The position numbers were made by a program, and so were the translations under genes. Shown here one piece after another: positions 23,200 to 44,866 of a DNA stretch of 64,000 nucleotides. Origin of the DNA: a virus. How positions within the stretch are numbered: position 1 is the stretch's first letter; every line of letters starts with the position of its first letter. The notes below the pieces were generated by a model. The model was not told where the DNA came from and did not search any database. It saw only the letters and a list, made by a program, of their open reading frames with translations. The DNA lies in the IMG/VR virus record IMGVR_UViG_3300017971_000201, positions 64,001-128,000 of that record; one strand, 5' to 3'.

Positions 23200-25962
23200 C
23201 TACGAGATCTGCGTGCCGACCGGCTGCTGGAGGGTGAAGATGATGAACTCCGCCGGCGTGCCGGGGTTGAACCCGATGTCGATGATCGCCTTGCCATCGG
23301 CCACGGTCGCGGCGTTGTTGTTCGTGGCGTTGCACGTCACGAAGAACGCCTCGGCCTCGGTCTCGCCGGCGAAGTAGCCGAGACGGAACAGCGAGCCGTA
23401 GTAGCCCTTGAGGGCGGTCTCGATCTTCGCCCACAACGGCGGCCCGTTGTTCTCGAACACAGCCCACTGGAGGTTGAGGCTGGTCGCGTACATCAGGAAC
23501 ATGTGCAGCGTGCGCGCGTTGATGTATCGCCAGCGCCTCTCTCGCGAGAGACTGCGAACCCCCCAGACGGCGATCCCGGTCGCGTCGCTCGAGATGATCG
23601 GGTTGATCCTCGACTGGTAGAGGTTGTCCCGGTCGGTCTTCTCCAGCACGAACTCGGCGGCGACGACGCCGACCGCGTTGAGCGCGCCGTCCTCGACACC
23701 ACCGGGGGCCTTCCCGACGTTCTTGACGTTCGCCGTGCGAGCGTAGACGCCGGCCACGAGCGGCGACACCGGCACCAGCTCGACCCGATCGGTGAGCGGG
23801 TTGACGAAGTAGATGTTGGGGTAGTACATCGCCCCGATCTTCTCGTCCCACGCCTGGTCGACCTGGATGTACTTGATCGCCTCGCTCACGGTCGTGCCGT
23901 TGGCGTAGCACATGATCAGGTAGCGCAGGTCCGGCCGGTTCTTGGCGAACTGGACCATGTCGAACTGCACGAATTCCGAGCCCTCGAAGTCCGGCACCAC
24001 GACGTTGAGGGGCTCCTCGACCAGGTCGAGGGCGTAGATCCCCTGCTTGCTGGACTCCAAGGCGGCGGCCGAGATGTCCGCGCGGGTGACGGCCGTGCCG
24101 TTGACACCGCCGGACATCTGCCACTCCGCCGAGTCGGCGAGCCCGGTGTAGTTGCCCAGGATGGCGGTGCCGGCCGTCGGCGCGCTGTCCCAGGTCAGGT
24201 CCCAGGCGCCGGTGTCGTAGTCGATCGTGTTGGCACCGGCCGCGTCCACGTCTCCGACCAGGTTGCCGAGCCCATCGTCGGTCGCGACCTGGCCCGACTG
24301 GTAGTCGGCGTCGATCGTGGTCGTGTTCCTCGGGGCCACGAGCGTGGTGAGGGCGATGATCCCGGTGACGTAGTCGACCGAGCCAGCTGCACCAGCGACA
24401 CCGCCCAGCTCGGTCAGGTCTCCGGCCACGTCGCCGTTCACGATCCCGAGCGGAACGTAGTCCACCAGGATGTCCGTGCTGCCGATCGGAGCCACCGAGG
24501 CTTCGAAGTCGATCAGGCCGCTCTGGGTCGGGTTGGACACGTCGTCCACCAGGTCGATCGTGTTCGTGCCCACGCCGAGCGCGCCCGCGAGAGCGACTCC
24601 CTGCTCCAGGTTGTCCGTGCCGGCCGCCTTGGTGATGATCGCCGACGCGTTGTAGGTCGCGATGACCGTGCTGGTGAGCACCAGCCCGCCGCCCAGCGAT
24701 CCGGTCACGAGCCCGGTCATGGCACCGGTGACGTAGTTGATGGTCCCGCCGCCCGGCATGGCCAGGGGGTTCACCAGGTTGCCGAGCCCGTCGTCGAGGA
24801 TGACCTGCGCGCCGTCGTCCACGGTCGTCACCGCGATGGCGACAGTGCCGGGGTGAACCGGCGTGCCGGTCAGCGGTGCCGTGCTGAGGTCGTAGTTGCC
24901 ACCCGGCGACGACGCGACCAGCGTCTCCGGCGAAGGACCGGCCACGATCGCGTAGCGGAGCTGGAAGACCGTGTTCTCCCGGTAGACGGGAGCGGTCAGC
25001 GCGCCAGCCGCGATCTGGAAGGACGTGTCGGCTCCGTTGACCGTGCCGAGCGCGAACGGGCCGCTGCCGAGGTTGTCGAACTGGTTGCTGACCTTGGCGT
25101 AGAACAGCCGCAGGCTGCCGTCGAGCACCGGCGTCGTCGGGAGCGTCATCGCGAACGATGTCTCGATCCCGTCGACCGCCGGTGTTGGCGTCTGGCCCTC
25201 GTCGTCCTGCTGGGCATCGGCCGCGACGATCCGCAGCGTGTTGTCCAGGCAGGCGCCGGCCGAGAGCGTCCCCGAGAACTGCGTGTCGATGCCGTTGACC
25301 GATCCGCCGGCCACCAGCACCTCGTCCTCCTCGTATGAGGGGAGCAACCCGCTCGGCGTGCCGCCCGCGCCTTCGGTGATCTCCACCAGCTGGGAGGGCC
25401 GCCGGGGATCGGTGAGGACGGTGGTGACGTAGTCGGCCGCGTCCGGGTCGGTGAACTGGACCGCCTCGTAGGTCTCCTCGGAGACGAGGATCGAGGCGTC
25501 GAACTCCGAAGGACGGAGGACGAGCAGGTCGAACTTCCCCCACTGCTCGGCGCCGGCCGTCCGGTCGAGGAAGTTGCGGTTCCCTCGGATGTGGATCCGG
25601 GTCGTGTTCCCCCAGGTCCCCTCACCCTTCATGGTGAAGGTCCACTTGGTGGGGCCAGGCGACGCGTCGATGTTCGCCCACGCCGAGATGGCATCGGACG
25701 GAACCACACGGACGATGTAGGCCCGCTGTCCACCGTTCCCGAAGAAGCCCTGGATCCCGATCGGGACCAGACCTAATGACGAGATCTGGCCGAAGACCCG
25801 CTCGAACTCGACGGTCGAGCGGACCTCGACCGGCGTGTTGCTCGGTCCCTCGTCGGTCCATCCGACGAACGCCGCCTTCGCGGGAGAGATGCCCTCGGGG
25901 GCACGAGACGGCTCCTTCTCGAAGCCGTAGACACCTGGGCTGAGGATTTCGAGTTGGGCCAC
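23200..25962 (-). CDS. gp18: Tail sheath protein (920 aa, with large inserted repeat domains)
   Basis: SPGVY..E, AFVG....GP, KAPGG, RINPI, VWG.RSL, RYINAR, FE.N...LW, PAEFI. Confidence 0.95.
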   Translation of the reverse strand: MAQLEILSPGVYGFEKEPSRAPEGISPAKAAFVGWTDEGPSNTPVEVRSTVEFERVFGQISSLGLVPIGIQGFFGNGGQRAYIVRVVPSDAISAWANIDASPGPTKWTFTMKGEGTWGNTTRIHIRGNRNFLDRTAGAEQWGKFDLLVLRPSEFDASILVSEETYEAVQFTDPDAADYVTTVLTDPRRPSQLVEITEGAGGTPSGLLPSYEEDEVLVAGGSVNGIDTQFSGTLSAGACLDNTLRIVAADAQQDDEGQTPTPAVDGIETSFAMTLPTTPVLDGSLRLFYAKVSNQFDNLGSGPFALGTVNGADTSFQIAAGALTAPVYRENTVFQLRYAIVAGPSPETLVASSPGGNYDLSTAPLTGTPVHPGTVAIAVTTVDDGAQVILDDGLGNLVNPLAMPGGGTINYVTGAMTGLVTGSLGGGLVLTSTVIATYNASAIITKAAGTDNLEQGVALAGALGVGTNTIDLVDDVSNPTQSGLIDFEASVAPIGSTDILVDYVPLGIVNGDVAGDLTELGGVAGAAGSVDYVTGIIALTTLVAPRNTTTIDADYQSGQVATDDGLGNLVGDVDAAGANTIDYDTGAWDLTWDSAPTAGTAILGNYTGLADSAEWQMSGGVNGTAVTRADISAAALESSKQGIYALDLVEEPLNVVVPDFEGSEFVQFDMVQFAKNRPDLRYLIMCYANGTTVSEAIKYIQVDQAWDEKIGAMYYPNIYFVNPLTDRVELVPVSPLVAGVYARTANVKNVGKAPGGVEDGALNAVGVVAAEFVLEKTDRDNLYQSRINPIISSDATGIAVWGVRSLSRERRWRYINARTLHMFLMYATSLNLQWAVFENNGPPLWAKIETALKGYYGSLFRLGYFAGETEAEAFFVTCNATNNNAATVADGKAIIDIGFNPGTPAEFIIFTLQQPVGTQIS

Positions 25963-29151: not shown

Positions 29152-29988
29152 CTACCCGGTGATGATCGGAACGGCGCGCTTCCAGTTGAGGATGTCCTGG
29201 TTGAGCTTCTCGATGAGCGTCTCGGCGTTGGACATGAGGTCGGTGCCGTTCATGGTCCGGTCACCGGCGATCGACGGCCACGAGTCGACGGTCATGCGGA
29301 TGTTCCCCAGCGTGCCCATCGCCTCGGCCAGGAGTTTCCGGCGGAAGAAGCCGGACTCTTGCGGGTCGAGCTGGCGAGCATCGACGGTCCACGTGTGCAC
29401 GGTCACCAGCGCGGTGGTCAGCCCGGAGCTGACGGATGATGGTGGCGGCATGATCTCGAGAGTGCGCGTTTCCTTCGTCCACTCCCAGTCCCGGTCGGTC
29501 GAGAAGATCCGGCCAATCTCCTCGAGATACTGGAGACGCTGCACGAGGTCCGAGTAGGGCAGCGGCGCGACGTTCGGGTTCGTCCACTGGCCGAACAGGA
29601 GGCTGAAGTAGGTGTAGCTGAACTGGTCGGCGTCGAGCGTCGGCAGCTGGTAGTTCGGGTAGTCGACCCGGATCACCTCGATGACGTCGGGCGGCATGAG
29701 GTAAGAGGTCTGCCCGTTGGCCAAGGGAATCTGGAGCACCTTCTTGACACCGACTCGTTCAGCGTACCAGCGCCGGGTCTCGTCCATGCAGTCGTCGTAG
29801 TGCGTCTCGCCTGGCGGGAACGGCTGGTCGGTGAGCGGGTCGATGTCGCCGGGCGAGGTCAGCTCGATGTCGATGATGCCTCCGCCGAGCTTGCGAAGCA
29901 CCCATCGCCAGTGCTCCTCCTCGCTCTTCCCCTGGCCGGAGATCGCCGGGAGGTCATCTGGTGCAGGAGGCTCGGGCGCTACGGTCAT
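29152..29988 (-). CDS. Neck protein (gp13-like head-tail adaptor)
   Basis: LGG..IDIELT, LA.....LG.IR, T.NG..L...A..E.L; SD AGGAG before ATG 29988. Confidence 0.8.
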   Translation of the reverse strand: MTVAPEPPAPDDLPAISGQGKSEEEHWRWVLRKLGGGIIDIELTSPGDIDPLTDQPFPPGETHYDDCMDETRRWYAERVGVKKVLQIPLANGQTSYLMPPDVIEVIRVDYPNYQLPTLDADQFSYTYFSLLFGQWTNPNVAPLPYSDLVQRLQYLEEIGRIFSTDRDWEWTKETRTLEIMPPPSSVSSGLTTALVTVHTWTVDARQLDPQESGFFRRKLLAEAMGTLGNIRMTVDSWPSIAGDRTMNGTDLMSNAETLIEKLNQDILNWKRAVPIITG

Positions 29989-30052
29989 GGCTGCTCCTGG
30001 GTCCACCACCATCCTAACGTGCGGCGCAGAGCTAGACCACAGAGCTACTTAG

Positions 30053-30106: not shown

Positions 30107-30394
30107 ATGACCCTCACAGACCCCAACCTGATCGAGATCCGCGACCTGTGCGCGGACCTCGCAGACGACCGCACTGGGGCTGACTGCCACGGTCTCGTCT
30201 TTCACATCAACAGGTGGCTGTTCGTGGACAACCGGTGCGTTGGCAGGCTCTTTCTCCGCACCATCGGCCGCGCCGCCGCCAAGCACCGCTCGCGCACCTT
30301 CAAGCTGACCGGTCGCGTACCGGTCGCGGAGAGGATCGCCAAGGCTGCCCACAAGATCACCGAGGAGACCAAGGGGACGATCAGTGAAGGGTAA
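30107..30394 (+). CDS. Hypothetical protein
   Basis: SD AAGGAG, ATG 30107. Confidence 0.65.
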   Translation: MTLTDPNLIEIRDLCADLADDRTGADCHGLVFHINRWLFVDNRCVGRLFLRTIGRAAAKHRSRTFKLTGRVPVAERIAKAAHKITEETKGTISEG

Positions 30395-30587
30395 GAGGGC
30401 AAGCTACCACGAGGCAGTCGCCTGGATCAGCCACAACGACGAGGCTGGCAGCGACGACGCCCTCAACATGGAGTGGGTCTCATGCTACGTGACGGTCTGC
30501 TTGATCGCCGACATCTTCGGTAAGACGTCAGAGGAGGTCGCGAAGGCCGTGATCCGTCACCGCAAGAAGTGGAAGGCGAATGACTGA
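30384..30587 (+). CDS. Hypothetical protein (67 aa)
   Basis: Overlaps both neighbours; GC3-rich codons. Confidence 0.65.
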   Translation: MKGKRASYHEAVAWISHNDEAGSDDALNMEWVSCYVTVCLIADIFGKTSEEVAKAVIRHRKKWKAND

Positions 30588-31233
30588 CCGAGACATCCTG
30601 AAGACGATCCGCTCGGCAAGGAAGTGGATCGCCCACTACAAGCCGTTCCACAAGGAGCCGAGCTGCGCGAAGAAGCTGCGCTCGTGGCGGCGTAGGCTGA
30701 GGATCACGCTGGCCGAGGCCGATGCCCGCCAGCTCGACGTACCTCCCGACCCCTACGCTCCACCACCGCCTCCGCCACCTCCGCCGCCGCCCCCCACGGA
30801 GGAAGAGATCAAGGCGAAGCACCTGGCCGAGCTGCGCGGCACCCGCTTCCTGGCCGACTGGTCGGTCTGCAAGGGGACGACCGCCTGGGCCGCCTGGGGC
30901 AGCTCCGGCTGGTCGGCCGTCACGATCATCACCCCGGCCCGCGTCTGGGCCACGGCGAAGCGCGTAGACGCCCGATCTGGCGAGCCCGTGACCAAGAAGA
31001 CGGCCCACGTGCGAATGGACCGCCTGGTGCGCCGAGACGCGTCCCTGGGCGGCAAGGACAAGCCGGCCCTGCTCCCGAGCGAGGTCTTCCCGGAGGAGGA
31101 AGACGAGGAGACCGAGCCGGCCGAACCCGAGCCCATCGATGAGCGGGACCCGGAGGTTACCGAGGCCGTGCAGAAGCGTCTGCCGGCACTGCTCGACATG
31201 ATCGACGACGACGCGACGGTCGACGACTGGTAG
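30580..31233 (+). CDS. Hypothetical protein with poly-Pro linker
   Basis: 217-aa ORF. Confidence 0.7.
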   Translation: MTDRDILKTIRSARKWIAHYKPFHKEPSCAKKLRSWRRRLRITLAEADARQLDVPPDPYAPPPPPPPPPPPPTEEEIKAKHLAELRGTRFLADWSVCKGTTAWAAWGSSGWSAVTIITPARVWATAKRVDARSGEPVTKKTAHVRMDRLVRRDASLGGKDKPALLPSEVFPEEEDEETEPAEPEPIDERDPEVTEAVQKRLPALLDMIDDDATVDDW

Positions 31234-31596
31234 TTAGCAGTCCGCGAGTCGACCGAGCCCGGTCACCGGGTCAGTGATCTCTAGTTCATAAAACGGCACG
31301 ATCGGGTCGCCGCCGCCGCGAACCCAACGGAGACGAGCGCAGATCATCTCGTCATCTTCGTTGAAGAAGATGTCCTCCACCTGTCCAAGACGGCCTGATC
31401 GGTCGGTCACCAGGTCGCCGGGATAGATGTGCTCGTGCTCGTGGGCACCGGTACCGCCGGTGGCCGCAGTCATGCGGTGCTGGCCGTCCATCAGCAGTCC
31501 ACCGGGAGTCATATGCGAGGAAGTCGACCAATTCCCCAGCTTGAGACGCTCCTTGTAGATGGCTACGACCAGTGGATGAGGCTCCCTGCTAGACAT
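31234..31596 (-). CDS. Small protein: DGQHR fragment, KOW/SH3-like part and peptide tag
   Basis: LMDGQHR; IYPGDLV.DRSG..GQV; ends DPVTGLGRLADC; SD GAGGAG. Confidence 0.65.
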   Translation of the reverse strand: MSSREPHPLVVAIYKERLKLGNWSTSSHMTPGGLLMDGQHRMTAATGGTGAHEHEHIYPGDLVTDRSGRLGQVEDIFFNEDDEMICARLRWVRGGGDPIVPFYELEITDPVTGLGRLADC

Positions 31597-31614
31597 TTGA
31601 TTCTCCTCGGGTCA

Positions 31615-31661
31615 GTTCTACCCGGGTCTTCCGACAGTCGGAGCTGAACCCTGGGTAGAAC
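31615..31661. promoter_or_regulatory. Back-to-back divergent GGGTAGAAC promoter pair
   Basis: GTTCTACCC 31615-31623 and GGGTAGAAC 31653-31661, each 6 nt from an SD or ATG. Confidence 0.7.
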
Positions 31662-31667
31662 GTCACC

Positions 31668-32597
31668 ATGAGCGAGCTGGAAATCGGTACCGAGGTCTAC
31701 TGGCACGACAAGAACGGCGTCCGCCAGCGCGGCCGGGTCTGCGCTGACGGCGCCTCTCAGGTGGTCCGGCCCTACGACGCGATCGGCCGGCTCCAGCTCG
31801 AGAAGCACGTGCCCGTCAGCCCGCTCATGAAACTCGCGTCAGGTGTCGATCAGCTGGCGGAACTGGCTCCGATCGTCATGCACCTGTCCCACCTGATCGA
31901 GCAGTACGAGGGTGGCCGTGGCGCCCCCAAGTCGACCTACTGCGGCGACTGGAAGATCGACATCAGCACCAGGCCGTGGACGCTCCACAGTCCGAAGACC
32001 ACCGTGGACCCGGTTCGCGTGCACCAGCGCGGGCTCTGCTCCGACGAGCTGTGGAAGAATCTGATCGAGGACACCGCGCTGGCCCTGGACCGCAGCGACC
32101 GCAGCGAGCCGCTCGCGGACCGCGAGCTGCCGGACGAAGCCTACGAGAAGGCCGCCGAGCTGAAGCTGTGCCGTCGCTGCTTCCGCGCGGCGGTGATGGA
32201 GCGCACGTGGCCGCTCGAGCCGGCGCGGCTGTCCGAGGAGGCGCTACGCGAGTTCGTGCTCGGCTTCCTCGACGGCAGCGTCTACTCGGATCGGCACATT
32301 CCGTCCTGGGAGATGGTGGCTCGGGCTGAATCCCCAGAAGAGATCCAGCGCGCGCAGGAGCGGTGGGGACGGGACACCTCGATGGTCTTCATGTGCCTGA
32401 TGCTCGGTCCGCCGCCGCCGAAGGACTACGCGGAGAAGGTCGCGGTCGTGTGGGAGTGGTTCAGCAAGGCCGGCCCGCGCTCGATCAACGGAATGCCGGG
32501 GTTCTTCTCGCACCACTTCATGCACATCGACGACTGGAAGCGCGCGGCTCCCGCGATCGACCGGGAGCTGGAGCGCCGGCGGGAGTTCGAGATCTAG
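31668..32597 (+). CDS. Hypothetical protein (309 aa) immediately upstream of cas12
   Basis: ATG 6 nt after TAGAAC; SH3-like N-terminus, CRRC, C-terminal KAGPRSINGMP.F domain. Confidence 0.75.
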   Translation: MSELEIGTEVYWHDKNGVRQRGRVCADGASQVVRPYDAIGRLQLEKHVPVSPLMKLASGVDQLAELAPIVMHLSHLIEQYEGGRGAPKSTYCGDWKIDISTRPWTLHSPKTTVDPVRVHQRGLCSDELWKNLIEDTALALDRSDRSEPLADRELPDEAYEKAAELKLCRRCFRAAVMERTWPLEPARLSEEALREFVLGFLDGSVYSDRHIPSWEMVARAESPEEIQRAQERWGRDTSMVFMCLMLGPPPPKDYAEKVAVVWEWFSKAGPRSINGMPGFFSHHFMHIDDWKRAAPAIDRELERRREFEI

Positions 32598-32604
32598 GAG
32601 AGCC

Positions 32605-32613
32605 GGGTAGAAC
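32605..32613 (+). promoter_or_regulatory. GGGTAGAAC putative -10 element for cas12m and the array
   Basis: Same motif as about 9 other gene starts; followed by SD AGGAGG and GTG 32638. Confidence 0.6.
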
Positions 32614-32637
32614 GTCGATGCGACCAGGAGGCGAAGC

Positions 32638-34602
32638 GTGGGAGCAGCGCGAAGACGAAACCCCAAGGTAGCCGCAGCCAGGAAAGGGAAGCCGCCGCCC
32701 AAGGCCACCGGCAACTGCCGGAACTACAGGTACGGCGCGCACGAGCCGATCGCCAATCTGGACAAGGTGCTCGATGAGATGCGCGGTGCTCACGACCTGC
32801 GCAACGTGCTGACGTGCATCAACCGAGCCCGAAGCGAGATGATCACGGCCGCGCTCGGCGAGCACCAGTCGTACAAGAAAGCCACTGCTGATCTGGCGGC
32901 TCTGCACCAGCGGCGCGACAAACTGGAGGCGCAGATCCGGCAACAGAACAGCGCCAGCCGCAAACGGCTGGGGCGACACTCCCCGCTGTCTTCGGAACTC
33001 GACACCGTTCGCAAGAGGATCGACGAGGGCAGGACCGCTCTCAAGAAACTCCGCAGGAAGCTCCTCAAGAAAGACCCCGCGCTGAAAGCGGTTGTCGAGG
33101 CCGCTGACGACATGGCGAAGAGGGAGACGACTCGCGCGGAAGATGCCTGCGGGCTCTACTGGTGCACCCGAAACGAGCAGACCGGCAAACGCGCCAAGCT
33201 GCGCCGCTTCAAGAAGTGGCGCGACAGCGAAGCGACCATCAGCGTTCAGATCCCAGGGGGGTTGACCGTTGAGCAGCTGCTTGGCGGCGAGAACAACCAA
33301 GCGCGCCTGGAGCTGCGCCCGGAAGGCGTATGGGTCCAGGGGGCGAGGAAGCGCAAGGTCGAGCCGGCCGAGGCCGCGAGGAACAAACTCAGACTCGACG
33401 AAGACGGCTACCCCATGCGCAAGCTGGGGACCGCCATCCTGCATCTCCGGTGCATGTCAGACGAGGACGGCAAGCCGATTTGGGCCGAGGTGCCGATCAC
33501 CTACCATCGCGAGATCCCCGCCGATGCCAAGATCAAGCGGTGCTACTTGCACCGATTCCGGGTCGGCAACCGCTACCACTGGTCTGTACGCTTCTCGCTG
33601 GAGCGGGGGAAGAAAGGCGACGACTCCTGGCTGCACCCGCGCGTCGCCACGACCGGCACGGCCGCGATCGACATCGGCTGGCGATGGTTCCCCGATCGCC
33701 TACGCGTCGCCGTGTGGGCCGGATCGGACGGAGCCGAGGGCGAGCTGTGCTTGCCCAAGTGGTGGCTGGACGAGATGTACTCCGTCCGGCTCGACCAGCG
33801 GGAGCGCGACGTGCTGTTCAACGAGATCGTATCCCTGGTCCTGCCGTGGTTCCGATCGCGGCGCGGGGAGCTGTCCGACTACGTCGTACAGGCGATCAAG
33901 ACGATGCACTCGTGGCGCGACAAGGGAAGGCTGGCCGCGCTCTCCATGCGCTGGCGCGATGATCTGGCCGCCGATCCGGGCGCCAACCCGGCTCACGTCG
34001 CCATGTCCATCCGCCTGGAGGAGTGGCGTAAGCGCGACAAGCACATCTGGTGCGAGGAGGTGAACCTCCGCAGCCAGCTCCAGGGCTCGCGCAAGGATCT
34101 CTACCGGCGATTTGCCGCGATGCTCACCAGCCGCTACGGCCGAATCGTGGTCGAGGAGTTTGACCTGAGTGCGGTCCAGAAGCTCCCGCCGGCCTCGATC
34201 GATGACGGCACCTACTCCAGGGTCAAGAGGCACAAGGGAGACGCGGCGTGCTCGCACCTGGTCGGCGCGCTCAAGGATGCGGCGCGGCAGCTGGACAAGA
34301 AGAACCCGAAGTGGACGACCAAGCGGTGCCACGTCTGCGGGAAGACCGAGAGGAAGTGGGAGAACCCCGGTGAGCTGGAGCACACGTGCAAGCACTGCGG
34401 AGTGCTCTGGGATCGGGACGTGAACGCGGCCCGGAACATTCTCGCCGCGAGCGGCGTGGCGGTTGACTGGACCCGGCCACCGCTCGCGCCAGCCGCCCGA
34501 ATGACTTATCCACAGGTAGAGAACCGCGAGATGCGTCGATCGCGGCGCAGGAAGGAGGCGCTCGAAACGACGCGTGCAAGCGGTGATCGACAGACGGCTT
34601 AG
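32638..34602 (+). CDS. cas12m: Type V CRISPR effector, Cas12m (V-U1/V-M)-like, 654 aa
   Basis: RuvC-I AIDIGWR (D345), RuvC-II IVVEE (E506), CxxC..CxxC, RuvC-III DRDVNAARNI (D594); long N-terminal coiled coil, GLYW, ISVQ, HR.IP.DA.I and LYR.FAA as recalled for Cas12m; array starts 10 nt after the stop. Confidence 0.85.
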   Translation: MGAARRRNPKVAAARKGKPPPKATGNCRNYRYGAHEPIANLDKVLDEMRGAHDLRNVLTCINRARSEMITAALGEHQSYKKATADLAALHQRRDKLEAQIRQQNSASRKRLGRHSPLSSELDTVRKRIDEGRTALKKLRRKLLKKDPALKAVVEAADDMAKRETTRAEDACGLYWCTRNEQTGKRAKLRRFKKWRDSEATISVQIPGGLTVEQLLGGENNQARLELRPEGVWVQGARKRKVEPAEAARNKLRLDEDGYPMRKLGTAILHLRCMSDEDGKPIWAEVPITYHREIPADAKIKRCYLHRFRVGNRYHWSVRFSLERGKKGDDSWLHPRVATTGTAAIDIGWRWFPDRLRVAVWAGSDGAEGELCLPKWWLDEMYSVRLDQRERDVLFNEIVSLVLPWFRSRRGELSDYVVQAIKTMHSWRDKGRLAALSMRWRDDLAADPGANPAHVAMSIRLEEWRKRDKHIWCEEVNLRSQLQGSRKDLYRRFAAMLTSRYGRIVVEEFDLSAVQKLPPASIDDGTYSRVKRHKGDAACSHLVGALKDAARQLDKKNPKWTTKRCHVCGKTERKWENPGELEHTCKHCGVLWDRDVNAARNILAASGVAVDWTRPPLAPAARMTYPQVENREMRRSRRRKEALETTRASGDRQTA

Positions 34603-34612
34603 GAGAGATGCT

Positions 34613-34999
34613 CTCGCGGTCCCATCGGAACGGGTTGTGGTTCCGACAACGTGGACTGGGAACGCTTCTACAGAGCCTTCGCTCTCGCGGTCCCATCGGA
34701 ACGGGTTGTGGTTCCGACACGCACCAGAGTCCCTTCCCGGCCCGCCGCGCTCCACTCGCGGTCCCATCGGAACGGGTTTGTGGTTCCGACACAGGTAAAT
34801 GCAGGTCCCCAGGTGCTTGTGGCTCGCGGTCCCATCGGAACGGGTTGTGGTTCCGACACAGGTAAATGCAGGTCCCCAGGTGCTTGTGGCTCGCGGTCCC
34901 ATCGGAACGGGTTGTGGTTCCGACGTAGCAGAAGTAGTCGCCGATCTCGACCTCCACCACGTCCTCGCGGTCCCATCGGAACGGGTTTGTGGTTCCGAC
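34613..34999 (+). CRISPR. CRISPR mini-array: 6 repeats CTCGCGGTCCCATCGGAACGGGTT(T)GTGGTTCCGAC, 5 spacers (36, 36, 32, 32, 39 nt)
   Basis: Repeats at 34613, 34684, 34755, 34823, 34890, 34964; 7-bp stem TCGGAAC/GTTCCGA; spacers 3 and 4 identical. Confidence 0.97.
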
Positions 35000-35011
35000 A
35001 GATTCATGTAG

Positions 35012-35052
35012 GCGGGCGGTAAGGCGGCTACCTCCGCATCGCCGCCGCCCGC
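35012..35052 (+). terminator. GC-rich hairpin after the last repeat (possible end of the array transcript)
   Basis: GCGGGCGG ... CCGCCCGC inverted repeat; no clear U-tract. Confidence 0.4.
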
Positions 35053-35075
35053 TTCGGAACCCGCGCCCTGATGCA

Positions 35076-35106
35076 GAAAGGGCGACGACCGAAGTCGCCG
35101 CCCCCT
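35076..35106 (-). terminator. Intrinsic terminator of the major capsid gene
   Basis: GGGCGGCGAC-TTCG-GTCGTCGCCC-TTTCT, about 30 nt after the stop. Confidence 0.85.
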
Positions 35107-35133
35107 CCGCTGACAGCTGGTCTAGCCCGAGGG

Positions 35134-36567
35134 CTAGAGCAAATTGTCCACTTCCACGCGCGCGAAGAACTCCGCCCGGGTGAGCGTGATCTTGTGGCGC
35201 GTACGGACCGCGCGACGGAGGCTCAGGTCATTCGGGTCGATGAAGTTCGGGGTGATCTCCATCGGGATGTACGGGCTGTAGATGAGCCCGGTGTCGAGGA
35301 TGCTCGGCCCCTGGTATCCCATGAGGATCTGGTTGGCCGGGAAGAGCGGATCGACGAAGATCAGCCACTTCCTCTTGAGCACGCCCTGCTTGAGGATCCC
35401 GCCCTGGTAGACGTGACCCTCCTCGACGGCCGAGAAGCCATCGATGTTGTCGAGGAGGCTGGCGACCTCCGACGACGTGATCGCCCAGTTGCAGGGCGCC
35501 CGCTGCGTGCGACGGTGCACGATGTGGGAGGCGCGGGACATGCGGATCACGAGCGACTTGAGGTGCTCGGGATCGCTGACGCCCGAGGGCGTCGCCCGGT
35601 CCCACTTGACGACGGCGATCGGCTCGACGGCGTTGAGCGCGGTACCCGCGATCTCGCGGTCGATCTCCGCCACCATCTCGTCGGACATCTGCGCGACCAG
35701 GTCGGCGTCGATGTCGCGACCCCACAGCGCGCGGAGGTCGTCCGCCGCCTCGACGCTGGCGAGGCTCTTGAGCTTGCGGCTCTCGGCCTCGATGCTCTTG
35801 ATCTGGATGTCCAGCTGGACCTCCGGGATCCGAGCGTTCAGCTCGTTGTCGTAGCGGTACTCGACCGTGATGACGTCACCGGACGCCGGCGCGGTGCCGA
35901 ACGTGAGCGACATCTGGCCCGACGCGTAGTTGACCGTGCCAGCGCCGCCGGCCATCAGCGTGCCGGCGACGACGGTGAACGCGCCCGCGCCGTTGTCGGT
36001 CGCGTTGACGGTACCGTTCACCTTCACGACGACGGTGGCCTGCCGGGGGCGGGGCCACGCGAGGTTGCGGGAGAAGACGACCGTGCCGCCGTCGCCGGTC
36101 CCGAACGGCTCGCCGTCCACGAAGTTGGAGCTGTACCACTTGTTCAGCACCTTGTTCATCTCGGTCATGGCGGCGACGGAACCCTTGTCCGACGCGTACC
36201 GTGGCCGGTAGAACGCGATGCCGCCGATCGGGCCGGTCATCGGCTGGACCGACGCGATCTGCGTCGCGACCAGGCGGATGGCGGTCCTGCGGATGACGGG
36301 CAGGACGTACTTCATGAACGGCCCGACCGAGAGAGCGCGAGTCTCCTCGTTGAGCCGCTTGAGGTGACGAACCTCCTGCTCGATCATCAGGGCCGTCAGA
36401 CCCCGCACGTAGTTGACGTGGGCCGGCGCGTAGCCCGGACCCATCTCCTCGTTGAGACCCCGGAGCATCTTGTGCCACTTGCGCACGTACCGGCTGACGG
36501 CCGGCTCGTCCGCGATGGCAGTCGACTCTCCGAGGTTCTCGGCTAACAGTCCTCGAGCCGTGAACAT
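35134..36567 (-). CDS. gp23: Major capsid protein (T4 gp23-like)
   Basis: P.IRR, SVQPMTGP.G, RKLK....EAA.DL.A.G.D, EIDREI, Y.PY.P; strong SD GAGGAGG. Confidence 0.96.
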   Translation of the reverse strand: MFTARGLLAENLGESTAIADEPAVSRYVRKWHKMLRGLNEEMGPGYAPAHVNYVRGLTALMIEQEVRHLKRLNEETRALSVGPFMKYVLPVIRRTAIRLVATQIASVQPMTGPIGGIAFYRPRYASDKGSVAAMTEMNKVLNKWYSSNFVDGEPFGTGDGGTVVFSRNLAWPRPRQATVVVKVNGTVNATDNGAGAFTVVAGTLMAGGAGTVNYASGQMSLTFGTAPASGDVITVEYRYDNELNARIPEVQLDIQIKSIEAESRKLKSLASVEAADDLRALWGRDIDADLVAQMSDEMVAEIDREIAGTALNAVEPIAVVKWDRATPSGVSDPEHLKSLVIRMSRASHIVHRRTQRAPCNWAITSSEVASLLDNIDGFSAVEEGHVYQGGILKQGVLKRKWLIFVDPLFPANQILMGYQGPSILDTGLIYSPYIPMEITPNFIDPNDLSLRRAVRTRHKITLTRAEFFARVEVDNLL

Positions 36568-36579
36568 CGGCTACCTCCT

Positions 36580-39399
36580 CTAGTGCCGGTGCATCCGCCC
36601 GGCCAGTCGCTCTTGCTCGACCAGCGACGTCCCCAGGAACGCCAAGTCCTGGGATGCTGCGTCGCCGGCGAGAAGTTCTGCTTGTTCGCTCTCCTCGAAC
36701 GCTCGCCGCTCGTCCTCGGTGATGTGCTCGCGGCCGGCGCTCATGGACCTGCGCACGCGCTCCATGGGACCGCCGGGCTCCTGCGCCCGGATCTCCGACC
36801 GAGACGCGGCGGCGTCGATCTCCCTGGTGGAGGTCAGCTCGTCGTTGCGAACGTCCTCCATGATCGACTCACGGTTCGGGTGACCGATCGTCCGGTCGCT
36901 CGCGTATGCCAGGAGCTTGGCCCTGGTGCCGGCCGTGACAGCCCGCTCGAGCATGTCGGCCTGCTCCTCGATCCGCGCCCGCGCGTCCCGGACCTCCTCG
37001 TCCTTGCTCTCGAGAGCGGACGTCAGACGCTCCTCCAGGGCCTCGAACCTCTTGGTGACCTCGGACCGGTAGCGCTTCTCACGCGCCTCTGCCTGGGCGA
37101 GCGCGTACTCGGCCTCGGACGCCCTCTCCTCCGCGAGGCGGATCGCGGTCCCGGCCTCCTCGTTCGCGGCGGTCTTCGCCGACATCTGTGCTTCCTCGAT
37201 CGAGGTCAGCGCTGACTCGACTCTTGTCTTCAGCTCCTCGGCGGTGTTGCACGCAGCGATGTCGCCGATCAGGTCGCGGACGCTCTCTCGATCCTCGCGT
37301 CCGCCGATCATCTGCTCCACGTAGAGCTGGAACGCCAGCTGGCGTGTCTTCTCCTCGACGTGCACGACGCGAGACTCCGCGTCCTTGGCCTTCTGCTCCT
37401 GCTCGTCCGCTGCCCGGGACAGCTCCTCGATCTTGGCATCCTTCTCGTCCAAGACCTTCTTCTCGTCGGGCGACGGGGCGTAGGGGTTGACCATCTCGGC
37501 GATCTTCTTGAGCGCCAGCTTCGCGCCGGCCGTCTCGGGATCGCTCGCGAAGTCGCTGCGGACCTCCTCCTCGACCTTCGTGCGCATCTCGGCCAGCGCG
37601 CGGACGAGCTTGGCCGCGAAGTCCTCGCGCAGCTCGTCGATCGCCTTCTTGTAGATCTCCTCCTTTTGGGACTCGACCTCACCGTTGATCCGGTCGTCGG
37701 TGTCCTCGGCCGCAGTCTCCGAGGCCACCCGCATCGCGTGCTGCTCGATCACGCGAACCGCGTCCGGGAAGTGCTGGCGCAGCATCGTCTCGGTGACCTC
37801 CTTCGGGTCCACCACGAGCTTGCCGGTGGGCTTGCCCTCGCCGTCCGTGTCCTCGGAGATCACGGACGGATAGGCGTCGTGGCAGGCCGGATCGGCCACG
37901 AAGTCCCACGTGTTGAGCTTGAAGTCCTCGCCGACCATGTCCCAGCCCCGGGGGCCGGTGGACGTGGAGCCCATGCCCCGGCTGGACATGCCGATGGCCG
38001 CACCCCGCCGCAGGAACGCGGCGAGGTTGCGACCCGCGTCGGCCTCCTCGACGACCTCGAACTTGCCGTTGATCGTCCCGTCGTCCTCGATCCAGAGACC
38101 GCGAACGATGCAGCCGCCCTCCCGGATCCGGCTGTTGTGGTTGACGGTGAAGTCGCCCAGCAGGAACCGGCCGTCGCCGTCCAGCTCGAATCCGGCGTAG
38201 TCGCCAGTTCCGATGGACGTGACGATGAACCCGGTCCTGAGCGCATCCTTTCGCTGCTCGCGCGGCTCGGCCTTCTTGCGCTCCAGACGGGTCGGGATCT
38301 GCTCCACGTCGCCCCAGATGGTGAGCGTGTGGTAGTCGTCGCTGTAGCCCTGCACCTTGCGCGTGGAGAGCACGGCCTGGAGGCCGAGCGACTTGGCGAT
38401 CCGGTGCGCGGCCTGCGCATAGTCGGCGCGCTTCTGGGTGATGTAGAAGCAGTTGTGCTGGAGATGACCGTCGGTGTCGATCAGCCCAGCAAGGAACTGG
38501 AGACGGGTCTCGCGGCTCCCGCGCACAATCGCGGTCGGGATCTCCACGTTGGTACCCACCATGTCGCGCATCGCGCGCAGCAGCCGGTTGTCTTGGCCGC
38601 GACCGGCGGTCAGGTGGATCGTGACGGCCTCGGTCCCGGTGGTCTTGCGCCACTCGTTCGTGGACAGCTCCCACCGTGCGGCGGTGTCCTCGCAGAGCTG
38701 CTTGATCTCGTCATCGATGGTCGTGATCGAGATGTCACCAATCCTGGGCGCACCGGCCTTGTTCTCGCGCAGGGTCTTGCCACCGTCACCGAACCAGACG
38801 CCGAGGAAGTAGGGATCGACCTTCGGTTCGGGCAGCTCGTCCTCGAACCGCTCGACGCCGGTGCTGAACAGCTTGTAGCGGCTCTTGTAGTAGATGCTCT
38901 TGTCGAGATAGTCCTCGACCGGGATGTCCACGATCTCGCCGCTGGACGTGTGAACCAGCGTCAGTACGTGCTTGTCGTTGCAGACCCACGGATCGCCCTT
39001 CGCCGGGTCGATCCGGTAGAGCTGGCCGGTGCCGGAGGTTGTCGCCAGCACCGTGCGCGCCTTGCCGTCCGGCCCCATGAGTCGGTCGCCAGCGACGATC
39101 TGCTCGACCGGGAGCACGCGACCGTCGGCCATGAGGACCGGAGTCCCCAGGCCGAGGCACTTGCCGTCCCCGGGATGGTCGACCGCGCCGATGACGCTCC
39201 CCTGCTCGATCCGGGGCTGGAGTCTTCCGATCTCCCTCTCCATGACCGAGCGGGGGTAGACGCGGTTGTTGGCCGTCGGCTTGTCCACGTGGCCGATCTT
39301 GCCTTCGACCACGAGCTTGCCACCGTCCCTCCCTTCGAGGATCTGCATCCTCATGGGCGGACCGTAGTGGTCGACCAGCACGCGCCTGTTCGTCGTCAT
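36580..39399 (-). CDS. gp21: Prohead protease (gp21-like) with intein, fused to a coiled-coil scaffold (gp22-like)
   Basis: NNRVYP, G.VDHP, GMSSRG.GS, WDFVADP; about 400-aa acidic coiled-coil C-terminus. Confidence 0.9.
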   Translation of the reverse strand: MTTNRRVLVDHYGPPMRMQILEGRDGGKLVVEGKIGHVDKPTANNRVYPRSVMEREIGRLQPRIEQGSVIGAVDHPGDGKCLGLGTPVLMADGRVLPVEQIVAGDRLMGPDGKARTVLATTSGTGQLYRIDPAKGDPWVCNDKHVLTLVHTSSGEIVDIPVEDYLDKSIYYKSRYKLFSTGVERFEDELPEPKVDPYFLGVWFGDGGKTLRENKAGAPRIGDISITTIDDEIKQLCEDTAARWELSTNEWRKTTGTEAVTIHLTAGRGQDNRLLRAMRDMVGTNVEIPTAIVRGSRETRLQFLAGLIDTDGHLQHNCFYITQKRADYAQAAHRIAKSLGLQAVLSTRKVQGYSDDYHTLTIWGDVEQIPTRLERKKAEPREQRKDALRTGFIVTSIGTGDYAGFELDGDGRFLLGDFTVNHNSRIREGGCIVRGLWIEDDGTINGKFEVVEEADAGRNLAAFLRRGAAIGMSSRGMGSTSTGPRGWDMVGEDFKLNTWDFVADPACHDAYPSVISEDTDGEGKPTGKLVVDPKEVTETMLRQHFPDAVRVIEQHAMRVASETAAEDTDDRINGEVESQKEEIYKKAIDELREDFAAKLVRALAEMRTKVEEEVRSDFASDPETAGAKLALKKIAEMVNPYAPSPDEKKVLDEKDAKIEELSRAADEQEQKAKDAESRVVHVEEKTRQLAFQLYVEQMIGGREDRESVRDLIGDIAACNTAEELKTRVESALTSIEEAQMSAKTAANEEAGTAIRLAEERASEAEYALAQAEAREKRYRSEVTKRFEALEERLTSALESKDEEVRDARARIEEQADMLERAVTAGTRAKLLAYASDRTIGHPNRESIMEDVRNDELTSTREIDAAASRSEIRAQEPGGPMERVRRSMSAGREHITEDERRAFEESEQAELLAGDAASQDLAFLGTSLVEQERLAGRMHRH
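38134..39159 (-). mobile_element. LAGLIDADG intein (342 aa) in the prohead protease
   Basis: CLGLGTPVLMADG, PYFLGVWFGDG, FLAGLIDTDG, ends GDFTVNHN/S. Confidence 0.95.
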
Positions 39400-41623: not shown

Positions 41624-44600
41624 CTACTGACCGTGGAATCTTCGGGTCATCGCGAGCAGCTCCTTCCGGGAGAACTTCCCGGATGGCGGAGCGGACATGC
41701 TGCCGCCGTTGGTTCGGCGCAGCAGGCCACGGACCTCCTCGAAGAACGCGCGCCGCTCGTGCTCGCGCCTGGCGAAGCCTTTGTCGCCCTCCAACAGACG
41801 ATTGAGCTTGTCCGAGATCTCGGAGTGCCGGCGGCTCGACTCCCTGTACTTCCATTCCTCGAGACGTCGCTCGTAGTCGTAGCGCTTCCACTCCTCTGGC
41901 GTCGGTTTCTTCCCCTTGCCGACCGCCGGGGCCTTGGGCTTGGGCGACGGCTTGGGCGCCGGCTTAGGGGTTCCCTCCTCCTCCTCCGGCGGCGCTTTCT
42001 CTGGCGCCTCCTCCGGCGGAGCCTCCTCCGGCTCTTCCTCCCCGCCCGGCGGCGGGGCCTCTGGCGGCCCGCCCTGGCCGCCGCCCATCGCGTAGCTGGG
42101 CAGATCGCCGGCCTGCTCCTCCTCGGAGTCCTTCTTCTGTTGCTTCTCGATCTCCTTGATCTCCTCCTCGGAGAACTTGAGGATGTTCTCCTGGATCCAG
42201 CGGGTGCTCACCCACGGCTGAATCCGGCTCGCGTAGTCAGCTGCCGCGTTCATGGTCTCGTAGGCCGCCAGCTCCCAGATCCCCGAGGGCACGGTCATCT
42301 CGATCGTGAACTCGGGCTTCCAGGGATCGCGCACGCCGCGAGCGGCCAGGTGCGTGCGAATGACCCTCTCCCAGCCGATCTTCAGCTCGCGCTGGAGATT
42401 CAGGGTCACCCGGGCCGCGCGAACGTCGTCGTTCGACAGAATCGACTTCGACGGCGGGGCCTCGTCCTTGCCCAGGTAGGCGCGCGGGACCTTCAGTGTC
42501 GCGTGGAGCATCTGCTTGAAGTACTCGACATCATCGACGGCCTGGTAGTCCGGGCCGGAGAGGACGTCCACCCTGGCCAGCTCGCGGCCCTCGCGAACGG
42601 CGATGAAGAAGTCCTCGTCACGGGCGAGAGGGTTGTAGCGGAGATCCAGCCGGCCGGATCGGGGGTTGACCATCCGCTTCTTCTTGAGGTCCCGCTTCGC
42701 CTTCTGAAGGAATGCGCCGACCTGGTCGGACGGGATGTCGGTCGTGTCGATGTAGTAGGCGTAACGAGCTGGCGCGCGCGTGTTGTGCACCACGCACCCG
42801 TCCGCGACGAAGTTGTGCTCGTCGGCCTCGACACCGATGTCATAGATGTCATCTGTCTCGATTTCCTCGACGCCGCGAATCACCTCTGTCTTCGCCTGGG
42901 GCTTGAAGGAGACGTCCAAGCAATAGGACGTGCTGGTCGGAAGCGGCTTGCTGGAGCCTTTGATCGTTCGACCGCCCGCTCGCGTACGAGACCAAACGAA
43001 GGTGGCGACCAGCCCGAGTTGCATGGCCAGCTCGCGCACATCCTCCAACAGCTGCTTGTTGCACATCTCGAAGCGAGCGCGCTCGTAGCGCGTCTTCCTT
43101 CCCTCCTTGCGGGGCTTGATGTGTGCGTCCGCGTCGGCAAGCCCTCGGATCATGGCCAGCTTGAGCTTGGGATGCGCTCGGAAGATCCACTCCGGCAGAC
43201 GCTTGTGGTGGGCGCCGGGGACGAACCCGTTGAGCGTCATGAACTCAGCGAACTTGCCGGAAACGATCGTGTAGGCGCCTAGCCGGTGGCCGGTATCGCC
43301 GACCAGCTTGACTGGCGCATATTTCTCGAAGAGAGCCTTGTACTGCTCGTTGATGTCCTGGTGCGCCCCAAGCGCGAACCCGGTCTCGTTCTGAGCAACG
43401 TGAGCCTCAGAGTGACCTGGGCGCAGCTTATGAGTGCGGGTGGCGACGAACCCGTCCCCGAGCATGAACCCCCACCACCGCGCGAAATCCGCGTCGGCGG
43501 TTTCCGGGACCGTGATCCCTGTAACAGGAGTGCCGCGCTCACCGCCCCAGTGCTCCTCGATCTCCAGATGCTCTGGGCCGTGACCGTTGGCTTCCAGCAA
43601 CGCTACGGCAGTATCGGTCTTGAGGTCATAGTCGCCGGCGAAGAAGTCGCGTGCCCGGCAGTGATGCACACCGACCTGCTTCGCAATCTTGGGGTAGGGC
43701 ATGGTCCGCTCGACAGCCCCGACGAGTCGCGCCTTGCTGTGGAGCTGCGGCCTTTCGAGGTAGATCTCCTCCCAGTCGTCTTCGTTCTTGGAAGGGGTGA
43801 CGAACCTGTGCACGCCAGGCTCAAGGTTCTGGACCTCCACGTAGTCCAGCCGGCGGATCTGGGGAATACCCTTGCCCCGGCCGACAACCGTCTCGACCAG
43901 AACAGGGTGCGTCCTGTTGGCGAAGATCTCCCTGTGGTCGCTGAAGACGCGGAAGATCTTGTCCTGGCCGTTGTGCTTCTTGTAGACGACCTTCGTCTTC
44001 TTCAGCCGGTGATCGTTGCCCGGATCGGTGTAGGAGTAGACCTCATCTCCCTCCTGTAGATCCTTGATTGCCTTACGGCCGTCTGGCGTCCAGATCTGAG
44101 AGTCTCCGCGCAAGCAGAGCTTGTAGATCAAGACCGAGTCCTCGAGCATCACCAGCCGCTTCCAGATCCAGCGAGCGCCCTCAGCGACCGAGACGCCGTA
44201 AGGCGACCGCCGCCGCGTCGCGCGCAGGCGGAAGTGGGCAACCTGCCAGTCCTCGAACAGGGCGAGACTCCTGGGGATCTCGACGTTGCCGGCGAGCATC
44301 CGCCGCAGCTCTTGGCTGTTCGCGGTGAACTGGCCGGTGACGTCCTGCACGAAGCCGATCAGACCGCCGTCCAGACGCTCGACCCGGCGCATCGTGGGAA
44401 CCGGGAGCGTATTGGTCCCGACGATCCCGTTCTCGGTAATGAGCAGCTCGAGGTAGTCGTTGCCCATCATCCCGAGGCCGTAAGCCTGTGGCCAGATCTC
44501 GTCCTCGACCCGCAGGATCCGGTGCATCAGGTCATTGCCCAGGCCCTTGAGAGCGTCGTCCTCCGACATGACCCAGATGCAGCGGCCGTCCTTGACCGAA

Positions 44601-44866
44601 GGCTGGGTCGCGTCGTTGGCAAAGTAGTGGAAGGCGCTGTTGATGTCCGGGTACTCCTCCATCGCCTCGTAGTCGGCAAACCGATCCATGAGCGACTGGG
44701 AGACGGTGAGCAGACCGCCGATGTCCTCGCGCCCCCAGACCGTGAACATGCTCGGCACGTGGTGACGCATCGCCGCGACAGACGGAGAGTCGGCCTTGGC
44801 CCGCTCCTCCTGTGGAGCGCCGAATACGTTTCGGAGCGCCTTGACCGCCCTATCACGGAGGGCCAT
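41624..44866 (-). CDS. gp20: Portal protein (gp20-like) with intein
   Basis: YE.M..YP.I, HFRL, PYG.S..E.AR..WK.L..LED..LIY, RAP.R...YID, EDFFI, DV.YF...L...LKVP. Confidence 0.95.
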   Translation of the reverse strand: MALRDRAVKALRNVFGAPQEERAKADSPSVAAMRHHVPSMFTVWGREDIGGLLTVSQSLMDRFADYEAMEEYPDINSAFHYFANDATQPSVKDGRCIWVMSEDDALKGLGNDLMHRILRVEDEIWPQAYGLGMMGNDYLELLITENGIVGTNTLPVPTMRRVERLDGGLIGFVQDVTGQFTANSQELRRMLAGNVEIPRSLALFEDWQVAHFRLRATRRRSPYGVSVAEGARWIWKRLVMLEDSVLIYKLCLRGDSQIWTPDGRKAIKDLQEGDEVYSYTDPGNDHRLKKTKVVYKKHNGQDKIFRVFSDHREIFANRTHPVLVETVVGRGKGIPQIRRLDYVEVQNLEPGVHRFVTPSKNEDDWEEIYLERPQLHSKARLVGAVERTMPYPKIAKQVGVHHCRARDFFAGDYDLKTDTAVALLEANGHGPEHLEIEEHWGGERGTPVTGITVPETADADFARWWGFMLGDGFVATRTHKLRPGHSEAHVAQNETGFALGAHQDINEQYKALFEKYAPVKLVGDTGHRLGAYTIVSGKFAEFMTLNGFVPGAHHKRLPEWIFRAHPKLKLAMIRGLADADAHIKPRKEGRKTRYERARFEMCNKQLLEDVRELAMQLGLVATFVWSRTRAGGRTIKGSSKPLPTSTSYCLDVSFKPQAKTEVIRGVEEIETDDIYDIGVEADEHNFVADGCVVHNTRAPARYAYYIDTTDIPSDQVGAFLQKAKRDLKKKRMVNPRSGRLDLRYNPLARDEDFFIAVREGRELARVDVLSGPDYQAVDDVEYFKQMLHATLKVPRAYLGKDEAPPSKSILSNDDVRAARVTLNLQRELKIGWERVIRTHLAARGVRDPWKPEFTIEMTVPSGIWELAAYETMNAAADYASRIQPWVSTRWIQENILKFSEEEIKEIEKQQKKDSEEEQAGDLPSYAMGGGQGGPPEAPPPGGEEEPEEAPPEEAPEKAPPEEEEGTPKPAPKPSPKPKAPAVGKGKKPTPEEWKRYDYERRLEEWKYRESSRRHSEISDKLNRLLEGDKGFARREHERRAFFEEVRGLLRRTNGGSMSAPPSGKFSRKELLAMTRRFHGQ
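42782..44116 (-). mobile_element. LAGLIDADG-type intein (445 aa) in the portal
   Basis: CLRGDSQIWT.DG, THPVL, GFMLGDG, RGLADADA, YDIGVE..HNFVADGCVVHN/T; removal restores LIYKL-TRAP. Confidence 0.95.

Follow-up and report, generated by a model that had tools for sequence, protein, structure and literature searches.

A T4-like jumbo phage carries, beside its capsid gene, a CRISPR-Cas12m cassette of subtype V-M that probably silences under RNA guidance without cutting

What would a large phage gain from a compact, single-effector CRISPR system, lodged among its own structural genes? The question is raised by a locus in the window analysed here, a stretch of 64,000 nucleotides (nt) that corresponds to bases 64001-128000 of one 159,664-bp virus record (IMGVR_UViG_3300017971_000201), in which a Cas12m-like gene and a short repeat array had been predicted from the sequence alone. 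With a G+C content of 65%, linear ends and ~58% completeness according to CheckV, the record is an incomplete 160-kb portion of the genome of a T4-like jumbo phage with a gp23-type capsid. The locus is best read as a V-M CRISPR-Cas12m cassette that this phage carries as accessory cargo and that probably acts as a non-cutting, RNA-guided silencer of rival elements, a reading that we favour while allowing it a substantial chance of being wrong. Its family, fold, CRISPR RNA (crRNA) scaffold, cassette nature and genomic wiring are directly supported, whereas the steps of its mechanism are drawn from characterised Cas12m proteins. The parts of the cassette, in positions of the window, are:

32602..35130, no strand: the cassette, a variable segment whose ends are blastn homology breakpoints against the closest related phage, L005
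32605..32613, + strand: GGGTAGAAC, a phage-wide promoter-like motif inside the cassette, 24 nt ahead of the cas12m start
32627..32632, + strand: Shine-Dalgarno AGGAGG, 5-6 nt upstream of the GTG start, read from the sequence
32638..34602, + strand: cas12m, 654 amino acids, RuvC D345/E506/D594 and C4 zinc ribbon (PADLOC Cas12u1, PDB 23vw, AlphaFold2 (AF2), Foldseek)
34613..34999, + strand, as cas12m: CRISPR array of six repeats and five spacers (covariance model R1)
34613-34647, 34684-34718, 34755-34790, 34823-34857, 34890-34924 and 34964-34999, + strand: the repeats, 35 nt each, except that copies 3 and 6 have 36 nt (extra T)
35080..35103, no strand: G+C-rich hairpin between the array and the stop of the capsid gene, read from the sequence; L005 has a similar hairpin in the same place

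Effector identity and crRNA scaffold

The 654-codon open reading frame is intact from its GTG start, and the RuvC triad and zinc ribbon attributed to its product by the original prediction are borne out by the sequence, the former in motifs around D345 (AAIDIGW), E506 (IVVEEF) and D594 (WDRDVNAARN) and the latter in CHVC (564-567) and CKHC (584-587), of which C564, C567, C584 and C587 are conserved. The PADLOC profile Cas12u1, which bears the old name of Cas12m, matches at E 6.2e-77 and 257.6 bits and aligns residues 26-604 with profile positions 2-529 of 533. Other Cas12 models of PADLOC reach at most 39 bits, those for Cas12f over the C-terminal part. The one exception, PDLC01692, bears the label Cas12f but reaches 254 bits across the same full-length region, and apparently stands for the same family as Cas12u1. 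Among the sequences of solved structures, matches were obtained to 23vw, deposited as 'CRISPR-associated DNA-binding protein Cas12m' (E 1e-55), to GoCas12m (8pm4, 1e-18) and to Cas12m2 (8hhl, 5e-12), whereas those of TnpB, Cas12f and CasPhi match at ~E 1e-3 over the zinc ribbon only.

The AF2 model built from an alignment of 80 homologues has a predicted local distance difference test score (pLDDT) of 91.4 and a predicted template modelling score (pTM) of 0.86. It contains a long four-helix recognition (REC) insertion at residues 41-170 and a large helical RuvC insertion at 374-499, which in the model correspond to the 'Roof' and RuvC insertions of GoCas12m (PMC11013384). Foldseek places Cas12m structures at ranks 1-4 with template modelling (TM) scores of 0.52-0.74, the top three at 0.64-0.74 and the leading pair, 8pm4 and 8hhl, at 0.67-0.74, with Cas12f and TnpB behind at ~0.3-0.6. 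Cas12j (CasPhi) and Cas12f were rejected as identities, as 7odf aligns only over residues 554-640 at E 1e-3 and the corresponding Foldseek TM scores are 0.2-0.5. An exhaustive library search returned 1016 representatives at E <= 1e-30, the nearest being 40-47% identical, and a FastTree phylogeny of 155 sequences places the protein within a 21-member metagenomic clade with a support of 0.99.

Sequence comparison and predicted fold thus agree in identifying a full-length Cas12m (subtype V-M, formerly V-U1), which belongs, as a divergent member, to a large family already known. The earlier claim of a phage-encoded Cas12m with its own mini-array is upheld by profile, solved-structure sequence matches and modelled fold; the further suggestion of a new compact type V clade finds no support, since the protein branches within Cas12m and the family profile aligns over its full length. 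Profile search, comparison with sequences of solved structures and structure prediction alike group it with Cas12m and not with TnpB, Cas12f or Cas12j.

The same data bear on the possibility that the gene encodes a TnpB-type transposon nuclease (IS200/IS605 or IS607) followed by chance repeats, and is not part of a CRISPR system. Such an origin would account for the sole Pfam match, a C-terminal TNB domain, and for the matches of NCBIfam TnpB models to the C-terminal region; these latter, however, cover only 50-140 residues (~473-611), with scores of 27-41 bits where the cut-offs are 100-425, while the Cas12m profile spans the whole protein and the fold is far closer to Cas12m than to TnpB. 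No TnpA or other transposase was found near the locus and no omega-RNA-like Rfam match was obtained, and the gene is followed, as in its homologues, by a regular repeat-spacer array with a covarying Cas12m scaffold. We regard the transposon explanation as refuted by these results.

The array begins 10 nt past the cas12m stop codon. Each repeat forms a 6-bp hairpin followed by AC, and the five spacers measure 36, 36, 32, 32 and 39 nt, spacer 3 being identical to spacer 4; the six hairpin repeats that had been noticed after the gene are therefore real, at 35-36 nt each over 34613-34999. With covariance model R1 all six are recovered, at E values of 4e-5 to 2e-4, and no other position in the record falls below E 0.45; solitary repeats dispersed through the record were detected neither by this model nor by a fuzzy search in which up to 6 errors were tolerated. 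Arrays lie in the same position and orientation beside the homologues P0003 (loci L022 and L023), P0015 (L024), P0017 (L026), P0010 (L002, ~23 repeats), the protein of the uncultured phage Rctr197k (L001, ~21 repeats) and MsCas12m (L020). Their repeats differ in sequence and follow a common design, in which an upstream segment of 3-5 nt pairs with the start of the loop and a 5-6-bp stem is followed by AC.

Covariation of the hairpin and pseudoknot pairs was examined across six arrays beside homologues, the characterised MsCas12m included. In this alignment 97.9% of cells are paired and six of the eight pairs vary on both sides, a result matched by none of 500 shuffles, with slid controls reaching at most 55%. 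The pairing geometry, C(-27..-25):G(-16..-14) and (-22..-17):(-8..-3), agrees with the pseudoknot and stem reported for the PmCas12m crRNA. On this comparative evidence, the array repeats are identified as carrying the Cas12m crRNA scaffold, a predicted pseudoknot followed by a 3' hairpin and AC.

In a sequence-based search for a trans-activating crRNA (tracrRNA), no anti-repeat within 30001-37000 exceeded 10 nt, in agreement with the earlier statement that none was obvious, and an Rfam scan of the locus gave no match. The reported lack of cas1, cas2 and cas4 likewise holds beyond the window, since the Pfam models of Cas1, Cas2 and Cas4 have no match anywhere in the 159,664-bp record (~58% complete), while control genomes gave matches.

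The locus of P0010, a 747-residue clade member, at 8001-11940 of L002 (GCA_029261855.1, contig JAJDAN010000066, 190 kb), is surrounded by many small open reading frames and a phage-type integrase. Several of its ~23 repeats are degenerate or closely spaced, and the gene caller had set an open reading frame over part of them.

A variable slot beside the capsid gene

The genes around the cassette that are needed to place it are:

23200..25962, - strand: tail sheath gene, a structural gene near the cassette
29152..30012, - strand: gp13-type neck gene (PF26809 on the same gene in L004; head-tail adaptor PHROG)
31668..32597, + strand: conserved 309-residue gene of no assigned function, 79% identical in L005, L006 and L019
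35134..36567, - strand: gp23-type major capsid gene (Pfam PF07068, E 1e-54)
36580..39399, - strand: prohead protease gene with intein (Peptidase_S77)
41624..44866, - strand: portal gene, a structural gene near the cassette

The flanks are as originally described, the cassette lying antisense between the gp13-type neck gene and the gp23-type capsid gene, with four small genes of no assigned function separating the neck gene from cas12m. In a blastn alignment with L005, positions 31651-32601 and 35131-40000 of the window match at 82-88% identity; in place of the 2.5 kb between the breakpoints at 32601 and 35131, L005 has 3.0 kb of unrelated sequence encoding a double-HNH homing endonuclease and a CoiA-like nuclease. 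Both breakpoints fall within a few bases of stop codons, those of the 309-residue gene and of the capsid gene. The right-hand boundary may be nearer 35075, because the terminator hairpin of the capsid gene is common to relatives; this hairpin (35080..35103), as read from the sequence, is probably the terminator of the capsid gene and may also stop the convergent cas12m-array transcript. The 309-residue gene, which has no Pfam or PHROG match, is present in relatives without Cas12m. The G+C content of third codon positions in cas12m, 0.84, is near the 0.88-0.93 of neighbouring genes.

IMG/VR contains 15 loci with capsid proteins 68-95% identical to that of the window, one of them on a complete 275-kb genome with terminal repeats. 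A Cas12m homologue is present in none of these 15 loci and in none of five whole related records, and a search of IMG/VR for related Cas12m with back-translated patterns gave no match. In five related lineages an HNH homing endonuclease gene lies directly 3' of the major capsid gene, in either orientation:

L005 10517-11668: HNH homing endonuclease gene in the slot
L009 10603-11664: same
L011 10517-11401: same
L014 10503-11021: same; also in L015 of this lineage
L016 10509-11369: same; also in L017 of this lineage

From these alignments, the Cas12m cassette is taken to fill a homing-endonuclease hot spot, a variable slot 3' of gp23. Its place where relatives have HNH genes and its breakpoints against L005 (32601/35131) therefore vindicate the original description of a system inserted next to the capsid gene.

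The 160-kb record contains 29 copies of the motif GGGTAGAAC, with 1.1 expected, and 55 copies of GTAGAAC, with 10 expected. Copies of GGGTAGAAC stand nearly always just ahead of gene starts, either 5-7 nt before ATG or GTG, a distance that suggests leaderless starts, or before AGGAGG; examples in the window are at 31655, 32605 and 48277 on the + strand and at 31621, 53548 and 55666 on the - strand. From this distribution GGGTAGAAC is very probably the phage's own promoter element. The copy ascribed to cas12m in the original prediction is present at 32605-32613, within the variable segment, and L005 lacks it at the corresponding place; the cassette therefore appears to be wired to the transcription signals of the phage itself. 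A sigma-70 promoter scan of the locus gave no match.

A slot of this kind invites the explanation that the cassette is itself a homing or site-defence device, which uses its guides to spread into cassette-less relatives at co-infection or to block their HNH genes. Relatives of TnpB aid the retention of the elements that carry them, HNH genes occupy exactly this slot in five lineages while this phage has none there, and the breakpoints lie only a few bases from the stop codons of the flanking genes. Yet neither the spacers nor the sequence after the array match the flanks, the HNH genes of relatives or any of the 15 related loci, and the cassette is in none of those 15 loci, so that there is no sign of spread. 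We consider this explanation very improbable.

Other differences among relatives were observed in the same region. A segment of ~420 bp around 31234-31650 holds a 120-residue open reading frame (31234-31596, - strand) with its own GGGTAGAAC at 31621 and no Pfam match; it is missing from L005, where the flanking genes abut, and looks like a second small indel of the same accessory block. The intein of the prohead protease, with Hint and LAGLIDADG domains at ~residues 82-422, is a presence/absence polymorphism among relatives, the insert being present in L005, L006, L019, L010 and L013-L015 and absent from L007, L008, L009, L011, L012, L016 and L017. The portal gene is unusually long (1080 residues), and portal profiles cover only ~residues 696-987; its N-terminal 690 residues are unexplained except for a weak helicase-like match, and the long gene may represent an insertion or fusion.

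Guides, targets and cleavage

In the proposed mechanism, cas12m and the array would be transcribed together from the GGGTAGAAC element, and Cas12m would cut the precursor (pre-crRNA) within its repeats without a tracrRNA. The resulting crRNA of ~50 nt (a repeat handle and a guide of ~17-20 nt) would direct binding of double-stranded DNA, dependent on a protospacer-adjacent motif (PAM), with formation of an R-loop. By binding tightly and without cleavage, the effector would keep the target from being transcribed or replicated, the likeliest targets being competing phages or other mobile elements in the same host. Both PAM-dependent binding without cleavage and self-processing of pre-crRNA are carried over from MsCas12m, GoCas12m, MmCas12m and PmCas12m (PMC11013384, PMC10442227).

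The guide set appears to be stable. L004, a contig of 57 kb from a second metagenome, shows 99.6% identity across the locus and has the same four unique spacers, with no sign of new spacer acquisition between it and the window. The unit of spacer 3 and repeat is doubled in the window (34791-34889) and single in L004 (5154-5185); because L004 has it once, either the unit was recently doubled by tandem slippage or the two assemblies differ. Since the record has no adaptation module and the same spacer set recurs in two metagenomes, the array gives the impression of a small set of guides that is largely fixed and not actively adapting. The original prediction also had the phage borrowing host adaptation machinery. 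Exact 21-24-mers of the repeat are absent from the viral, metagenome and genome collections, the last with 185,579 species genomes, and no donor or host array was found there; because the repeat matches nothing exactly in any collection, and with the four unique spacers of L004 unchanged, that proposal is left without support.

At the locus of the nearest homologue, P0003, in a sister lineage, the identical gene occurs in two metagenomes with different spacers, one missing and one new between L022 and L023 (2580-2800); spacer turnover therefore occurs somewhere in the clade.

Searches for protospacers were negative throughout. Against the 160-kb record and all the loci compared here, the four unique spacers gave only chance matches of at most 14 nt (blastn-short); the array had no match in the GenBank phage set at E <= 1 and matched PLSDB plasmids only at E >= 0.3. 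Exact 23-24-mers of spacers 1, 3 and 5 had no match in IMG/VR, and the exact 24-mer of spacer 5 had none in the 185,579 species genomes or the JGI metagenome set. The best array match against five related phage records (one complete, 275 kb) reached E 0.006 and was rejected, with 24 of 39 positions matching and the 13 PAM-proximal nt unmatched. Read directly, the spacers resemble G+C-rich coding sequence, and they therefore probably derive from genes of a high-G+C element or host.

These results also weigh on a regulatory use of the cassette, in which the guides would aim Cas12m at host promoters, or at the phage's own in the unsequenced 42% of its genome, as a programmable repressor and not a weapon. 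Blocking transcription is what Cas12m does naturally (PMC11013384), the array is very small and does not differ in its guides between samples, and the cassette uses the phage's own promoter motif, all of which would suit a domesticated regulator. Against this stand the lack of any spacer match beyond chance in the 160-kb record or the complete 275-kb relative, of dispersed solitary repeats in the record and of an exact 24-mer of spacer 5 in the species genomes, and we judge such a role quite improbable.

The acidic triad calls for more caution than it was first given. As predicted, D345, E506 and D594 are canonical, but the triad does not set this protein apart from known Cas12m, because aspartate-glutamate-aspartate (D-E-D) is the majority state of the family: it is found in 135 of the 153 nearest family representatives, in all 21 members of the protein's own clade, and in MsCas12m and the Rctr197k protein. 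The literature divides Cas12m into four clades, of which clades 3 and 4 are D-E-D (PMC10442227). Bigelyte et al. tested eight orthologues, four of them D-E-D, and none cleaved double-stranded DNA (PMC11013384). The purified D-E-D enzyme MsCas12m binds DNA, shows no cleavage of DNA or RNA and lacks collateral activity, and mutation of its D274, the residue with which D345 aligns, to alanine leaves pre-crRNA processing unaffected (PMC11013384). Conversion of the H-D-D site of Cas12m2 to D-E-D did not restore cleavage (PMC10442227). An easy misreading is thereby corrected, in that an intact D-E-D is the rule among Cas12m relatives and so far no predictor of cutting.

The same V-M cassette could nevertheless be catalytic if its D-E-D clade were active, with the target DNA nicked or cleaved or the displaced strand degraded, and the phage would then destroy rivals or host DNA instead of silencing them. 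The canonical residues, invariant in the clade and kept in at least 90% of 80 homologues, would fit such an enzyme, as would a slot that is normally home to DNA-cutting homing endonucleases. Cutting has not been seen in any Cas12m tested, the four D-E-D orthologues and purified MsCas12m included (PMC11013384), nor was it regained by the D-E-D back-mutant of Cas12m2 (PMC10442227), and the model retains the 'Roof' and RuvC insertions linked to binding-based silencing; an active nuclease is in our estimate unlikely, though it deserves to be taken seriously. Bolder, and distinctly unlikely, is the idea that the 21-member all-D-E-D clade is an active RNA-guided nuclease branch which phages recruited into the capsid-side homing-endonuclease hot spot, where it would serve against close relatives that co-infect, either as a programmable weapon or as an RNA-guided homing element.

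Silencing without cleavage remains the preferred reading, and several observations count against it. No protospacer was found in the searched collections, so that no target class or PAM can be named. Cas1, Cas2 or Cas4 may be encoded in the rest of the genome, the record being ~58% complete. MsCas12m, the nearest characterised enzyme whose sequence was compared, has only 27% identity to the protein. The triad is conserved at 90% or more in the 80-sequence alignment and at 100% in the 21-member clade, which argues, at the level of sequence, that the acidic site has some role. The 21-member clade is a sensible place to ask whether any D-E-D Cas12m cuts DNA, and the practical value of the present protein is modest, as a compact (654 residues), confidently modelled effector from that clade.

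Comparison with known systems

The closest known systems are the V-M proteins MmCas12m2 (8hhl), GoCas12m (8pm4), MsCas12m, PmCas12m and the protein of 23vw, with which the present one shares full-length homology, predicted fold, the helical REC 'Roof' and the RuvC insertion. Further common points are a single crRNA, an array downstream on the same strand with pseudoknot-hairpin repeats ending in AC, the lack of a tracrRNA and of adaptation genes, residence on a mobile element, and a D-E-D site as in published clades 3 and 4 and MsCas12m. The protein differs in its distance from them (27% identity to MsCas12m; GoCas12m and MmCas12m at E 1e-12 to 1e-18), in belonging to a 21-member metagenomic clade without a characterised member, and in having ~18 additional basic N-terminal residues and a basic C-terminal tail of 50 residues; its carrier is a T4-like jumbo phage and not a plasmid.

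With regard to position, T4 offers a parallel in segD, a free-standing homing endonuclease gene beside gene 23 in the structural-gene region. Like segD-type genes, the cassette fills a variable slot between genes, immediately 3' of the major capsid gene, where relatives carry HNH genes; unlike them, it encodes another protein family with an RNA-guided mechanism, and there is no evidence of homing.

Huge phages are also known to carry Cas12j (CasPhi) and Cas12l (CasLambda), and viruses to carry mini-arrays that serve in conflicts between viruses, which resemble the present case in combining a compact single-effector type V protein with a small array on a large phage, in lacking an adaptation module and in their presumed role against competing elements. 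Homology to Cas12j and Cas12l is limited to the RuvC and zinc-ribbon core (7odf, E 1e-3 at the C-terminus; Foldseek TM ~0.2-0.3), and those enzymes, unlike the Cas12m proteins so far characterised, are active nucleases.

Phage- and prophage-borne V-M systems have already been described, in a 2024 review, in a 2026 preprint and in the GenBank virus Rctr197k. The preprint, of September 2026, presents MvCas12m of myxophage MV-1 as the first phage Cas12m (bioRxiv 10.64898/2026.09.14.751636). That locus is likewise a phage V-M system with a D-E-D site, a small adjacent array, no cas1, cas2 or cas4, no tracrRNA and no protospacer found. MvCas12m has 610 residues, its triad at D305/E463/D555 with different motif spacing, and 8 spacers; judged by its published residue numbers it is not among the homologue matches obtained here and is a different protein. 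It is carried by a temperate, integrase-encoding phage of Polyangiales that comes from wastewater, whereas the present cassette lies beside the capsid gene of a gp23-type jumbo phage.

Rctr197k (GenBank KX853510) is an uncultured phage of 197 kb with a 622-residue D-E-D homologue of Cas12m, which has 28% identity across 91% of the query, and a same-strand array after the gene with 36-nt pseudoknot-hairpin repeats ending in AC. The gene is annotated there only as 'similar to transposase' and is followed by an annotated CRISPR region. The Rctr197k protein falls outside the clade of the present one (tree distance ~3.2), its array has ~21 repeats, a second array has other repeats and the neighbourhood is a different one; the two cassettes look like independent acquisitions. 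The two annotated CRISPR regions of Rctr197k, at 637-891 and 7855-9369 of L001, have unrelated repeats, and the one that does not follow the Cas12m homologue lies by a 'transposase-like protein'.

The cassette is, then, a genuine example of a described kind and not a new type of system. What it adds is a clean, intact V-M module on a T4-like jumbo phage, with an arrival route as an exchangeable cassette in the capsid-side HNH slot; compared with the known examples, it is new in being carried by a T4-like phage, in lying in the HNH slot beside gp23, in having a phage-type promoter motif and in belonging to an all-D-E-D clade.

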